Source: a virus (Duplodnaviria; Caudoviricetes). Taken from it: DNA of 64,000 bases. The stretch is taken from the IMG/VR virus record IMGVR_UViG_3300044723_001152, positions 24,139-88,138 of that record. One strand, written 5' to 3'. The notes below the pieces were generated by a model. That model was not told the DNA's origin and did not search any database. It saw nothing but the letters and a program-made list of their open reading frames with translations. Shown here piece by piece: positions 41,017-61,974 of this stretch; positions within the stretch are counted from its first letter, which is position 1; each line of letters opens with the position of its first letter. The position numbers and the translations under genes were made by a program.

Positions 41017-44000
41017 TATACTGCCAATGCGATCCCTCTCATATCCGTTATACGTGGTGGATATGCTGGGTTCGTACCTTTCATAACTATCTTAATTTTG
41101 AAAGATGTAAACTCGTTGATATCGCTGTCACTAAACTCATAATCAAAGAAGTCTGTCTTAAAACTATCAGCGTATGGTGATTGACTACGACCCTCAGCAC
41201 TTATAGCCGCGTTGGCTTGTGTCATCTGGACGTAAGGTATATCTTTCATCTCCCTATCGTCATCGATACCTTTTACTTTTCTGAATACTTCTATCGAAGA
41301 TGTTGGGAATACACTCGCCGCAATTCTTAAATCTAATGCGGTTGATGGATTCTCTAAACTAATCTCTCTTGTTATATACTTCGCACCCGCACTACCTCCA
41401 GTTGGATCTGTCTCTGCCACAAATCCAGTTGTGTTGCCTGATGTAGGACTATCTAGTCTGTTATGTATCGCATATAGACTTGTTCTGGATAGGTCGATAA
41501 CTGGACTTACGTTTGCGTTCGTAGTGTTCAATGTGATATTATAGAATAATGATTTTGTGCTTGACAAGTGGGTAGTCTCGTTTATAGTCGATAATACTGC
41601 TTTCGCACTCGTAAAGTAGAAGTTATCATTAGGCACAATACTTGTAAATGAACTGTCCGTCACGTATGGTGTCTCACTACCGTGTACAGATTGTGTACTT
41701 GTAGTTTTGATACTGTGTGTCGATGTTGTATCTGGGAAGTTTAACATACCAATCTTAGGCATGACACTCTCAAAGGCACGGTCTTGCGTTGCCACAACGT
41801 CTGTGCTTCCAACTGAACCAGTTGAAGTTGCCGGGTCACCACTTAGTGTGATTGTGTATGAATCCTCAGTTACGTTACCAACATCATGTGTTCCGTTTAT
41901 AACACTACCTTGAATACCATTGTAATCAGTTGTACCACCAAGACCAGATATCGTCACCTTACTTGGTTTGTTATCCGTCATGCCATGATGTTTATGATTA
42001 ATCTTAATAATGTTAGGGTTACCACCAAATGCCGTACCACTACCTGCGGTAGCGTTCGTCTCAATTGGATTGTTATCTAATGTCTTAGTCGCCAGGGCGT
42101 CATTCGTCATACTGAAAGTACCCTCAGTATTCGCGGTGAATGCTGCCTTGTATAGAGTAAATTTTAAATCTTCCATCTGGTCATCTGTCCATAGTGTCGC
42201 ATTTTGCGAACGGAATAGAGTACCTAATAATGGTTGAACTGTAACTCGTCTCGTGCCACCAACATCAATATCACCCAATCTACTTACATATGCCTTATAA
42301 CTCTGACTATCTGGTTTTAAGATAATCGCATATTCTTTATTACCTTGTAGGTATACAGGACTTGGGAAAGTTACCGTGGTCGCTGTTGAAGCGTCCGTAG
42401 ATGTATTAACACTCGCCGCAGGTACAGTAACCTCAGAGAATGGTATAATTCTTCTACCAGGTCTGCTCTCAATAGTCTCAACCAGATATACTTTGATTGG
42501 TATATTATCATCTTTCTCACTAAAGAATAAATCAACCTTAGTTAAGAAGACACCACCAACATCATCAATAGTAAATGTTTGTGCTAATGGATCGCCTCTT
42601 GGTTGTTCGATACTGATACCAGCAGTAATATTATCTACCGTTCTTCTCTCATCTGTTTCAGTAACAGTATTTGAACGTATGATTGGAACCCTTGTGGATT
42701 CAATCGTCTCTTGTTTAGTAGTTTGTAATCCACGTGCCGTGAATGTACTATCAGCGAAAGTATCAACATCATCATCAATCTTTCTATTCGTTGATGAACT
42801 TGTTAATCTGAATACCCTATCACCAGTTCTAAATCTTGTAGCGTCTGTATTTGGTAATGCGAAAGTACCTGATACTGAACCAGTTGAGTCCGTTACTAAG
42901 TTACCTCCTATTACACCTGATGTAGGTGTGACGAATGAAGTTATATTCACATTATCAAAGAATGGGAATACCTTAGTGTTAGGTTTTAATCTTGTCGCAC
43001 TAAATGAAATAGTCTGACTACGAATGAAAGGTATGAATGCCACATCAACAACTCTATCACCAAATGATTGACGTTGTATGTTTGATCCAGAAATCTCTCT
43101 GGTAATACCTGTTCTGGTTCTACTTGTAACCGTACCAGATACTGTCGCACCAGCACTTATGTTACCCTGTGAGGCACTCGCTGATTGTGACCACTGACCT
43201 GACCAGTTAGTCTGCCAGTTATTCCAAACCGTACCTAGACTATTACCACCACCCGCAAGTGCGGACATGGTGTCAAATAAATTATTATCGTTGATGATTA
43301 AGTCTGGTCTTCTCTCTGTCTCGTACCATTCATCTAAACTTGGTGTTAATGCGATATCACCCTGGTATTGGAATACCAAGAATGGGTTACAGTTAACTGA
43401 TTTAGTAGCGTATGGATTTTTGATGAACTCACTTGATGTATATGGTAGAGTAATCAAGTCACCAGTTTTCTGATAACCTGCTGTTGTTCTCTCAGCGTCC
43501 GTGTCATTACTCGCCAACTCAATGAGTTTAACTTGGTCAGTATGGTGTTCTGGTCTCAACTCACCCTCACTCATATCAACTGAACATCTATATTCACCTG
43601 ATAATACATCACCAACATTGTGACCCTTGAAACTATCTACTATGATACCATTCTTAAATCTATCAAGTCCAGTAGCACTATCTTGTATCTGTGTGTTGAC
43701 CGCCTGTTGTTCTAATAGACTTAACTGTGTGTAGTATTCTATGTTCTTAATTCTCTGTTCTAACTTACCAATGTCTCTCATCGTGTAACGTCTGTTATCT
43801 ACCGTTGTAATCTTAACGTCACTCGTATTGAAAGTATATGGTGGTAAGTTTAAGTAGTATAATGCCATAGCGTCATTGAACGGTTCTGGTCTCTGTGGGT
43901 CAATCGCAGGCGTTCCTTTTGCCTGTTTGAATAGACCCTCTTGCGTTAGGAATATCCCATCTATTCTACTTAAATAAAATTCGAAGTCTAGTGTTGCGTC

Positions 44001-60302: not shown

Positions 60303-60817
60303 TATATGTATAACGAAACGAAGTTAAATGAGATAGATTTTCTAACAATATTTTTATTTTTATTTGGTTCCACACTATGTTGTAACCATGACGGGAAGAT
60401 ATACAAGGTGTTGTTATCTGGCGTCAGCGCAATCTTCTCCGTATTCATCACATCTGGTCGTTTTATCGTCCTAGGGTTCCAATCATAGTTGATGTAGTTA
60501 CATGGATGGTGAAGGACCAATCGACCAGTGTTCTCTCCTGTTGATAGATAGACCACACCTGATAGTGTCACACCAGGGTGGACGTGTGTCTCGTTATGGT
60601 CACCAAACTTGTTCTCATTATACCATGCGTTGTTGAGTTTCACATCGTGTAACCCAATCTGGTCAGCGAAGGTGTTGGCGTGACGTTCCAACGCTGGCTT
60701 CGCCTGTTCCGTCAGGACGATATTGTGTTGTTCGCCAGAACCAGAACCAATCCTAGGCTGAACTAATGTGTGTCCACCCAACTCGATACGACCTGTGTAG
60801 AATGGTATACTAAACAT
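60302..60817 (-). CDS. putative 2OG-Fe(II) oxygenase (TIGR02466-like)
   Basis: AWYN...HNETHVHP...LSGVVYL, YIFPSWLQHSVEPN, RKSISFN. Confidence 0.85.
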   Translation of the reverse strand: MFSIPFYTGRIELGGHTLVQPRIGSGSGEQHNIVLTEQAKPALERHANTFADQIGLHDVKLNNAWYNENKFGDHNETHVHPGVTLSGVVYLSTGENTGRLVLHHPCNYINYDWNPRTIKRPDVMNTEKIALTPDNNTLYIFPSWLQHSVEPNKNKNIVRKSISFNFVSLYI

Positions 60818-61487
60818 CTTCTCGTATGAATGGCATGGACCGTGAAGCCGCGAGTGGTGTCCCCTTACTGATGACGGAGGTCACAAAGGTAATCATCGTT
60901 AATCTTTCTTCTTTACTATCGAAACCCTGTGCCCCATGCCACAACTGACTATCGAAAGCCATACACCTATTGAAGATGTTACTTACCCGAGTGTCCTCGA
61001 TGAACTGCCCATTGTGTAGCCCTCTTGCCTCATCTGCCACCTCCTTCGAAACATTCTTCTTGTAATACTGTACCTTGGTCGTCTGTAGATCCTCTCGTAT
61101 GTCCTCATTACGTTTCTTGTATAGACATGTACCAGTATCCGCCCTAGCCCCTGGTGTGAGGTAGTTTATTATCGTGTGGGTATGTGGGTAGTCACTATGT
61201 ATCCAACCCTGTTCCTCACCAGTAATCTTTTGAAAATATGTCTGAGCCTTGACACCAAACATGCCAGACGTTATGTATTCGTGGTCGTAGAACTGTAGAT
61301 AGAAACGTTTGATGAAGTAATTAAAAAATTCTTTATCTATGTCCTCTAAAAGTAGTGAGCGAACACCTGGCCAGTTCCCGCTTGACGATGGTTTGTACTC
61401 TAAACCAGGTCTGTTCGCAAGGTCGATGACATACCATGGGTCATCAAAGAAGTTGTCTGTTATCGTGGTAGGAAAATGTATCATCAT
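60810..61487 (-). CDS. DUF6445-like 2OG-Fe(II) oxygenase (start at about ATG 61487)
   Basis: ITDNFFDDP, WPGVRS, WIHSD, YLTP...GTCLY, FNRC..FDS..WHG, RLT. Confidence 0.75.
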   Translation of the reverse strand: MMIHFPTTITDNFFDDPWYVIDLANRPGLEYKPSSSGNWPGVRSLLLEDIDKEFFNYFIKRFYLQFYDHEYITSGMFGVKAQTYFQKITGEEQGWIHSDYPHTHTIINYLTPGARADTGTCLYKKRNEDIREDLQTTKVQYYKKNVSKEVADEARGLHNGQFIEDTRVSNIFNRCMAFDSQLWHGAQGFDSKEERLTMITFVTSVISKGTPLAASRSMPFIREDV

Positions 61488-61546
61488 AAAAATCTTTCTG
61501 AGGGCGGGCAACGTTTAGGCGTCACCCTTCCTAAATTAACCCTCCA

Positions 61547-61650
61547 TGGTACGGTCTGCCAGATTTGAACTGGCATGTCTCTATCCTTATTGGACATAAA
61601 CGACTTGTATTCGTAGTCCAAGTTGCGTCTACCTCTTCCGCCAAGACCGC
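61547..61650 (-). tRNA. atypical 104-nt tRNA-like gene: Leu-type (class II) body, extended anticodon arm with ACG apex, encoded CCA
   Basis: Acceptor GCGGTCT/AGACCGT plus ACCA; D-arm GCG-GAAGAGGTAGA-CGC; ACTTG/CAAGT stem around GA-CTACGAA-TA; 10-bp variable stem with one mismatch; T-arm GCCAG-TTCAAAT-CTGGC. Confidence 0.8.
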
Positions 61651-61662
61651 AATAGTATATAG

Positions 61663-61974
61663 TCAGACGGAAAAAGAGGTCCCACAACCACAACTCGATT
61701 TTGCCGCTGGGTTACTGAACTTGAACGTAGCCCCGAAATCGTCCTTGTCATAGTCTATCTCCGTACCTGCAAGGTATATCTCATACATCTTATGTACGAG
61801 GAGTATGTCATCTACGATCCTATCGTCCCTAGTTTCCTTATCATCAAAACTCCACTCGTACTCGTAACCAGCACAACCACCAGCCTTCACATCTAACCGT
61901 ATAAATTCCTTATTGTGTTTCTTTCTTAAATCTCGTAAATGCTCGTAGGCATTATCTGTAAGTGTTATGTCCAT
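61663..61974 (-). CDS. A-type Fe-S cluster carrier (HesB/IscA/SufA/ErpA family)
   Basis: GGCAGYEY, GTEIDY, FKFSNP, CGCGTSF; CTAAATA late-promoter variant at 61980-61986. Confidence 0.93.
   Translation of the reverse strand: MDITLTDNAYEHLRDLRKKHNKEFIRLDVKAGGCAGYEYEWSFDDKETRDDRIVDDILLVHKMYEIYLAGTEIDYDKDDFGATFKFSNPAAKSSCGCGTSFSV

Follow-up and report, generated by a model that had tools for sequence, protein, structure and literature searches.

A marine phage family of tRNA-Leu-derived RNAs with an exchangeable anticodon arm and a linked 3' pseudoknot

A tRNA-like gene in an intergenic gap

The window, the whole 64,000-nucleotide stretch analyzed here from an 88-kb viral record, has all of its genes on the minus strand. 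A 150-nt gap separates the Fe-S protein gene (stop codon ending at 61663) from a DUF6445/2OG-oxygenase-like gene downstream. Inside this gap, starting 12 nt after the stop codon and overlapping spurious ORFs only, lies a tRNA-Leu-derived tRNA-like gene of 104 nt (61547..61650, minus strand), identified from its sequence, its minimum free energy (MFE) cloverleaf and its family homologs. Read along the minus strand, it runs GCGGUCU-UG-GCG-GAAGAGGUAGA-CGC-A-ACUUG-GACUACGAAUA-CAAGU, continues through a 28-nt extra region and ends with GCCAG-UUCAAAU-CUGGC-AGACCGU-A-CCA.

The 5' acceptor strand GCGGUCU (61644..61650; all features on the minus strand) pairs with 61551-61557 in a stem of 7 pairs, the first of which is a wobble, G1.U72, that went unmentioned in a preliminary description of the locus. 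The leucine-type D arm, GCG-GAAGAGGUAGA-CGC (61625..61641), contains A14 and A15 and a D loop reading G18 G19 U20 A20a; it agrees with the published D arm of E. coli tRNA-Leu except at positions 16-17. U8, G9 and A26 are present between the arms of the cloverleaf. The extended ‘anticodon’ arm (61603..61623) consists of the stem ACUUG/CAAGU followed by a G.A and an A-U pair below the loop CUACGAA, which is the anticodon loop of tRNA-Arg(ACG), with C32, U33, A37 and A38. The extra (variable) region (61575..61602, 28 nt) ends in U48 and forms a stem of 10 stacked positions, one of them A.G, capped by AAUAA. The T arm GCCAG-UUCAAAU-CUGGC occupies 61558..61574, its stem covarying across the family, and the 3' acceptor strand AGACCGU, A73 and the encoded CCA (61547..61557) are invariant in the family alignment.

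Most of the structural account in the preliminary description stands. The minus-strand cloverleaf with its seven-pair acceptor stem, A73, CCA and canonical T arm is present in both the sequence and the MFE structure; A15, U48 and U20 are read directly from the sequence; and the 11-nt loop closed by a 5-bp stem can extend the stack by G.A and A-U, leaving CUACGAA exposed. The long variable arm has the 28 nt claimed for it, but its ‘10-bp stem’ is 10 stacked positions made up of 9 pairs and one A.G. The unconstrained MFE structure of the element is exactly the cloverleaf (-32.5 kcal/mol, z = -3.4), and 0 of 200 shuffled sequences folded as well.

The expectation that the gene is easily missed, overlapping as it does a spurious ORF, was borne out. 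Default ARAGORN reports 0 genes in the window, and Rfam returned nothing for the element at gathering score, nor at E<=10 on 600 nt. When introns are allowed, ARAGORN finds the element as the sole locus in the whole 88-kb record and types it as Ile-UAU with a 17-nt intron, while its closest relative (L001) is typed as Phe-AAA with a 5-nt intron. We rejected these intron readings because they disagree between near-identical relatives and need mismatched stems, and because a middle part made of two hairpins suits all 25 variants of the family. The 104 nt recur letter for letter in another assembly (L033), where the flanks are slightly different, and are also identical in contigs from DNA runs of two further studies; recurring in independent assemblies, the element is neither a sequencing error nor an artefact.

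A family with a conserved tRNA frame

Pattern scans of viral contigs, metagenome contigs and cellular genomes, based on the T arm, the D arm, the downstream flank and a gapped frame pattern, gathered 25 distinct sequences from 49 marine phage loci. The context genes of these loci (gp5, baseplate wedge, terminase, 2OG oxygenases), together with neighboring tmRNA genes that match those of Pelagibacter phage HTVC008M and OM43 phage Melnitz, indicate that the family belongs to pelagimyophage/Melnitz-like Kyanoviridae. The element is absent from the genomes of both HTVC008M and Melnitz, and the papers on pelagimyophages and Melnitz report a small number of tRNAs and the tmRNA and say nothing of the element (PMC7029224, PMC9004378). 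The window region was unmatched in a blastn search against named phages, and a search for related loci with the downstream protein as query recovered nothing. The bacterial genome scan returned only ordinary tRNA-Leu genes with C72, apart from one marine MAG contig, which proved to be a phage-like family member. Two metatranscriptome runs yielded only small, low-depth contigs of a relative, possibly from DNA carry-over, and one metatranscriptome contig runs on into a different middle variant.

Frame statistics come from 22 aligned variants. Little or no variation occurs at positions 1-26, at U48, in the T loop or at the 3' end, and the interval between the D arm and U48 is hypervariable. The acceptor, D and T stems are paired in 330/330 cells, as against only 28-45% with slid partners, and 6 of the 15 frame-stem pairs have changed on both sides. 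All 7 acceptor pairs form in all 22 variants, with G.U at 1:72 throughout (22/22) and covariation at 6:67 (C-G vs G-C). Positions 8-26 of the D arm are near-invariant except that pair 11:24 covaries (C-G vs U-A), and the T stem has compensatory changes in 4 of its 5 pairs beneath a loop that reads UUCAAnU in 24 of the 25 variants. The 3' acceptor strand-A73-CCA is kept even in loci retrieved with no constraint on that part. U72, and with it G1.U72, is a hallmark of the family that also appears in loci found without constraining position 72; cellular tRNA-Leu genes sharing the 5' half carry C72. The extra arm is compensated as well, at the base of its stem in L001 (GUUU/AGAC vs AAAG/UUUU) and in the upper stem in a metatranscriptome contig (GUCC/GGAU vs GCCC/GGGU). 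The frame diverges more slowly than its flanks. Judged by these sequence comparisons, the upper tRNA frame (acceptor stem with G1.U72, A73-CCA, D arm, A15-U48, extra arm and T arm) is strongly selected.

Unrelated viral contigs (L002/L009, L005/L010, L011, L012) share the leucine-type D arm in all 18 nt and have behind it an insert of 85-130 nt and then a hairpin resembling a T arm; the acceptor stem of L002 is apparently 9 bp. These look like members of a larger ‘tRNA-Leu frame with insert’ class.

Variation of the anticodon arm

When folded alone, the middle part of every variant gives two hairpins, the ‘anticodon’ arm and the extra arm. The first of these is canonical in L049 (5 bp and UUUAAAA, tRNA-Leu(UAA)) and L076 (5 bp and UUCAAAA, tRNA-Leu(CAA)), both of which share the family acceptor stem, G1.U72 and the downstream pseudoknot described below. 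It is near-canonical but damaged in L004 (loop UUUAACC), and closed, with 7 bp and a triloop, in the ‘UAU’ forms L013, L029, L030 and L038. Ten distinct sequences carry stubs of 3-4 bp with the loops UUCG, GAGA, GUAA, UUAC, ACUA, UAAG and AUU; their stable-tetraloop caps suggest selection for a compact fold rather than decay. The remaining form is an over-long stem with a 7-nt anticodon-like loop, which is CUACGAA in the window, L040/41/43/54, L044, L047 and L066, and UCUAGAG in L056. In L001, GAA-GUAA-UUC replaces the ACG arm between flanks that are ~95% identical to those of the window copy. Among orthologs the anticodon is therefore not conserved: the loop presents UAA, CAA, UAU or ACG, resembles UAG, or is missing. 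The anticodon arm is a free, swappable position in the family.

The ACG loop behaves differently from its surroundings. ACUACGAAU is unchanged in four distinct sequences that represent three backbones, each with its own D stem, T stem, extra arm and pseudoknot, and the stems that carry it, ACUUG/CAAGU in the window, AUACUA/UAGUAU in L040/44/47 and CCUUC/GAAGG in L066, are all complementary, with 4 of 7 pairs changed on both sides. In every lineage the pair next but one to the loop is non-Watson-Crick (G.A, G.U or U.U). There are 7 stacked pairs below CUACGAA in the window (the 5-bp stem, G.A and A-U), 8 in L040 and 7 in L066. An invariant loop on different complementary stems argues that the loop sequence is under selection in three lineages, while the existence of close stub relatives (L001 for the window, L046 for L066) indicates that the ACG arm is an optional, exchangeable module. 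The same pattern, ACUACGAAU held constant on three different covarying stems, lends some support to a decoy or mimic for a host factor that binds anticodon loops, a wider form of the decoy for host anticodon nucleases suggested in the preliminary description.

The search for marine phage homologs and the covariation check recommended in the preliminary description thus produced both relatives and compensated stems in the ACG arm and the extra arm. It had also proposed that homologs with a normal 7-nt loop would mark this copy as decayed or mis-sequenced. Some homologs are indeed normal tRNA-Leu(UAA/CAA) genes, but the window form is a recurrent, selected variant and neither decayed nor mis-sequenced.

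Decay would be the simplest account of a family that holds canonical tRNA-Leu genes alongside many copies with damaged anticodon arms, and the T loop of L066 is aberrant (AUCAUAC). That the element is a functionless, decaying tRNA-Leu pseudogene is nonetheless hardly credible when the frame stems are paired in 100% of cells with many compensatory changes, stable tetraloops cap the stubs, covariation is seen in the extra arm as well as the ACG arm, the frame has changed more slowly than its flanks and the identical 104 nt occur in independent samples.

Three further observations concern ACG-arm copies. The L066 variant (L066:56-149), in which AUCAUAC stands in place of UUCAAnU, comes from a 99%-complete 146-kb genome, and this copy may be degenerating. 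The 99%-complete relative G001 has one ordinary tRNA gene (Thr-UGU) beside its ACG-arm copy. Within the window, an exact 10-nt complement of the ACG loop (AUUCGUAGUC) lies in mRNA sense at 43016-43025 (minus strand), inside a gene for a 2003-aa protein; we estimate that ~0.1 such sites are expected per window, and a single site is not convincing.

Decoding

The ACG loop raises the question of whether the RNA is a working decoder, either a Leu-charged tRNA that reads CGU/CGC/CGA or an unusual ArgRS-charged tRNA-Arg(ACG). The first version, put forward in the preliminary description, would mean Arg-to-Leu recoding or deliberate mistranslation of the kind associated with nematode nev-tRNAs, and nematode class II tRNAs with non-Leu anticodons are indeed charged with leucine (PMC3333845). 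CUACGAA matches the canonical Arg(ACG) anticodon loop at every position and is kept in three lineages; default ARAGORN types L040, L044, L047 and L066 as tRNA-Arg(ACG); and L040 is among the orthologs that pass the Rfam tRNA model RF00005 (L049, 54 bits; L040, 41.9; L004, 41.8; L048, 36.5).

Several properties of the arm and of the phage speak against decoding. At 7-8 stacked pairs the arm exceeds the 5 of a decoding tRNA, and the Arg(ACG) calls of ARAGORN need potential pairs among these 7-8 to be left unpaired or mismatched. The window copy does not have the canonical arrangement of a 5-bp stem that closes a 7-nt loop with U33; default ARAGORN passes it over, and so does Rfam, even at E<=10. 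It has the loop of a tRNA-Arg(ACG), but not the class I body with a short variable region, and the ArgRS determinant A20 is absent, with U20 in its place. Sister copies with near-identical flanks carry no anticodon: the closest relative, L001, is without the ACG loop, and most members are without any anticodon. In 68 long ORFs, the phage itself uses 141 CGU, 12 CGC and 81 CGA codons (234 in total, 24% of its Arg codons), so that leucine brought to these codons would be misincorporated into the phage’s own proteins, to their harm. Arg-to-Leu recoding by the window RNA is unlikely in view of the over-long stem, the unconserved anticodon and this codon use, and the proposal of a Leu-charged CGN reader was not upheld; for a decoder of either kind we see very little probability.

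A covarying pseudoknot downstream of the CCA

A pseudoknot of 45 nt, supported by covariation, follows the element at 61500..61544 (minus strand). It begins 2 nt 3' of the CCA in the window and 1-3 nt 3' of it in the family. The layout is an outer helix (P1, 61539-61544 with 61500-61505), a 5' bulge and an inner hairpin (P2, 61520-61527 with 61506-61513), and the entire apical loop (61514-61519, CCUAAA) is complementary to the bulge (61530-61535, UUUAGG). Among 24 variants of the downstream element, 22 have a covarying pseudoknot after the CCA. In a plain MAFFT alignment both sides have changed in 14/20 pairs, 89% of cells pair vs 43-54% with slid partners, and the loop/bulge pairing takes six different forms, all of them complementary. 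A covariance model of the pseudoknot gave 22 matches in 346 kb, all directly after a tRNA-like gene, and no other match in the window or the remaining genome.

The pseudoknot is unmatched in Rfam. Pistol and the other ribozyme classes considered as candidates do not match it there either, and an HDV-like theta ribozyme was rejected on the same ground and because the helix order obtained from covariation is incompatible with that class (PMC10879173). Theta ribozymes are likewise compact pseudoknotted elements directly after a phage tRNA, often tRNA-Leu, but they form a nested P1/P2/P3/P1.1 double pseudoknot, cleaved at its 5' end, in place of the order outer helix, 5' bulge, hairpin, and the CCA that is encoded in the present element is rarely encoded at theta-ribozyme tRNAs (PMC10879173). 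The pseudoknot may guide 3' processing, block an exonuclease or cap the 5' end of the next mRNA. The DUF6445-like ORF (60810-61511, minus strand) has a listed TTG start at 61511 that overlaps the pseudoknot; the ATG at 61487, just past the pseudoknot, is the more likely start and gives a protein of 225 aa.

Genomic context

No convincing promoter or terminator was found for the window copy, which is probably co-transcribed with the Fe-S gene. Four relatives (L004, L030, L036, L076) have a consensus sigma-70 promoter (TTGACA-17-TATAAT) 7 nt 5' of G1. In about half of the variants a permuted two-piece tmRNA gene of alphaproteobacterial type ends 3-30 nt upstream (L014:2727-2999, with the tag ANFNEYALAA; L019:6188-6463; L040:1503-1814; also L021, L022, L042, L047, L050 and L053); none was seen in the window’s 88-kb record. 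The flanking protein genes vary widely between loci. AAGGAG and an ATG occur within 10-15 nt of the pseudoknot at most loci, and no ORF was called within ~260 nt 3' of the element in L034.

This arrangement would suit a cis-acting processing or stability cassette, in which the tRNA shape is a cleavage signal for RNase P (and a 3' endonuclease), the upstream tmRNA or mRNA gains a defined 3' end, the downstream mRNA gains a 5' end protected by the pseudoknot, and the anticodon arm, even in its ACG version, has no function of its own. The spacing behind the permuted tmRNA in about half of the variants, the position of the window copy 12 nt after a stop codon with no promoter of its own, the AAGGAG and ATG that shortly follow the pseudoknot at most loci, the change of flanking genes from locus to locus expected of a portable cassette, and the usefulness of A73-CCA, the elbow and the acceptor/T stack to RNase P all favor it. 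For the window copy, with no convincing promoter and the Fe-S stop codon 12 nt away, a cis-acting role fits equally well. Several members, however, have their own promoter 7 nt upstream and hence no upstream RNA to release, L034 has no called ORF downstream, and HTVC008M makes the same tmRNA without the element. Nor does a cleavage signal need an invariant leucine-type D arm, A15-U48 or an extra arm, and the invariant ACUACGAAU loop on covarying stems would go unexplained. We regard the cis-acting cassette as a serious but distinctly less probable alternative to a selected RNA that acts in trans.

Other RNA and protein genes were seen near some members. The Rfam manA RNA motif occurs at or above gathering score at L019:2606-2811 and L022:7575-7781, within a few kb of the module formed by the tmRNA and the tRNA-like gene. 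The canonical tRNA-Leu(UAA) member L049, on a 328-kb viral contig, is directly preceded by a gene (L049:4389-5261) for a 290-aa class II aminoacyl-tRNA-synthetase-like protein (Pfam tRNA-synt_2, E = 1.4e-13). In Melnitz, a glutamine riboswitch aptamer (L060:1562-1610) lies directly after the tmRNA, where relatives carry the tRNA-like gene; this riboswitch has already been published (PMC9004378).

Leucine identity elements

Charging by LeuRS needs A73, U8-A14, A15-U48, G18G19, A20a and the D/T-loop pairs, whereas E. coli tRNA-Leu without its anticodon and variable arms is still charged (PMC9976931; PMC2377443). [quoted passage not shown] The leucine identity set named in the preliminary description (A73, A15-U48 and a long extra arm) is invariant across the family, and the wider LeuRS set of A73, U8-A14, A15-U48, G18G19, A20a, U55, C56 and C2-G71 is invariant in the 22 aligned variants. 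Leucylation of the family RNA is plausible on these grounds: the parts that vary are all dispensable to bacterial LeuRS, which can therefore probably charge the RNA with leucine.

RNase P has determinants of its own in A73-CCA, the elbow and the acceptor/T stack. The conserved LeuRS features do not single out leucylation, because RNase P and the tRNA fold use them too. The canonical members L049 and L076 share the same 3' trailer, so that some nuclease must free the CCA in these, and presumably the CCA is freed by a nuclease in the derived copies too. Genes for an L/F-transferase, a CCA-adding enzyme, a FemAB protein and a peptidyl-tRNA hydrolase were sought in this ~60%-complete record and none was found.

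Comparison with known tRNA-like RNAs

The nearest precedent is phage T5 RNA1 (AY543070 30501-30644), annotated as ‘tRNA-like stable RNA with unknown functions’. Like the window element, it has a leucine-tRNA frame, including a GGAAUUGGUAGAC-type D arm, an extra arm, U48 and a T arm, which in T5 RNA1 reads GAAGG-UUCAACU-CCUUC, and in both T5 RNA1 and the window family the anticodon arm is replaced by a non-decoding element. The likeness is that of a generic tRNA-Leu frame, beyond which no significant sequence similarity is shown. T5 RNA1 has a ~60-nt insert and belongs to a large coliphage tRNA cluster, whereas in the family the replaced position holds either a very short stub or a long stem with the Arg(ACG) loop; the family also has G1.U72, a 3' pseudoknot and often a tmRNA neighbor, and can be traced in one orthologous locus to canonical tRNA-Leu(UAA/CAA). 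The T4 stable RNAs C and D offer a looser parallel. A non-decoding stable RNA like RNA C/D was one of three readings offered in the preliminary description, and it is the one that fits best, with T5 RNA1 as the closer parallel.

Bacterial class II tRNA-Leu (RF00005) is matched by the element in the 5' half of the acceptor stem and the D arm of cellular genes, and shares with it A73, A15-U48, G18G19, A20a, C2-G71 and a long extra arm. In the window copy, by contrast, a Leu anticodon is missing, the arm has 7 stacked pairs, the extra region is 28 nt long and U72 replaces C72. Nematode nev-tRNAs also combine a class II leucine-type body with the anticodon loop of a foreign amino acid (PMC3333845), but they keep a 5-bp anticodon stem and a conserved anticodon, unlike the over-long stem and the anticodon of the element, which is not conserved among orthologs. 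The tRNA-like domain of tmRNA resembles the element as an anticodon-less tRNA mimic that is charged by an anticodon-independent synthetase (as we suppose for the element) and is followed by a pseudoknot. The element differs from tmRNA in its one-piece full cloverleaf, its leucine features (G3-C70, no G3.U70) and its lack of a tag frame, and the Rfam tmRNA models match only the neighboring gene and not the element.

Proposed role and significance

The conserved frame and the exchangeable anticodon position make it very probable that the element is a selected, non-decoding derivative of tRNA-Leu. In the scheme that we favor, RNase P would cut at G1, as it does for tRNA, and an endonuclease would cut between the CCA and the pseudoknot, as the canonical members must also require. 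The RNA would then probably be leucylated and act in trans, off the ribosome, as a tRNA mimic. The window arm, a look-alike of the tRNA-Arg(ACG) stem-loop, is most likely a bait or ligand for an enzyme that reads the loop; guesses at such an enzyme include the A34 deaminase TadA, ArgRS and an anticodon nuclease. Codon reading has no place in this scheme, since the stem is too long. A pseudoknot 1-3 nt after the CCA could hinder release of the 3' end, which counts against the scheme. Taken as a whole, with a non-decoding phage RNA of the T5 RNA1 kind that is processed, leucylatable and active in trans as a mimic with an ACG bait, the statement seems to us evenly balanced between right and wrong.

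A broader and more speculative reading, which in its entirety we hold only tentatively and think rather improbable, is that unrelated phage groups make anticodon-free RNAs that are leucylated, as tmRNA uses alanine, with the leucine-tRNA frame as the working part; that such an RNA delivers leucine to, or traps, a non-ribosomal partner; and that the vacant anticodon position accepts exchangeable baits, the tRNA-Arg(ACG) loop being one. If this broader reading were true, the marine family would be the minimal form, since ten of its variants carry no insert.

T5 RNA1 and similar tRNA-shaped RNAs have gone for decades without an assigned function, and the marine family is unusually informative about them. 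One locus spans the range from an ordinary tRNA-Leu to an anticodon-less RNA while the remainder stays under selection, which implies that the tRNA-Leu frame has a function apart from the inserted module; the features that are kept are only those needed by LeuRS and RNase P. Standard finders miss the genes of this family or type them as tRNA-Arg(ACG), tRNA-Ile(UAU) or tRNA-Leu(UAG), and such calls can mislead host prediction and codon-usage arguments for the abundant SAR11/OM43-type phages. The 3' pseudoknot, with its strict linkage, and the tmRNA gene so often found nearby are new leads.
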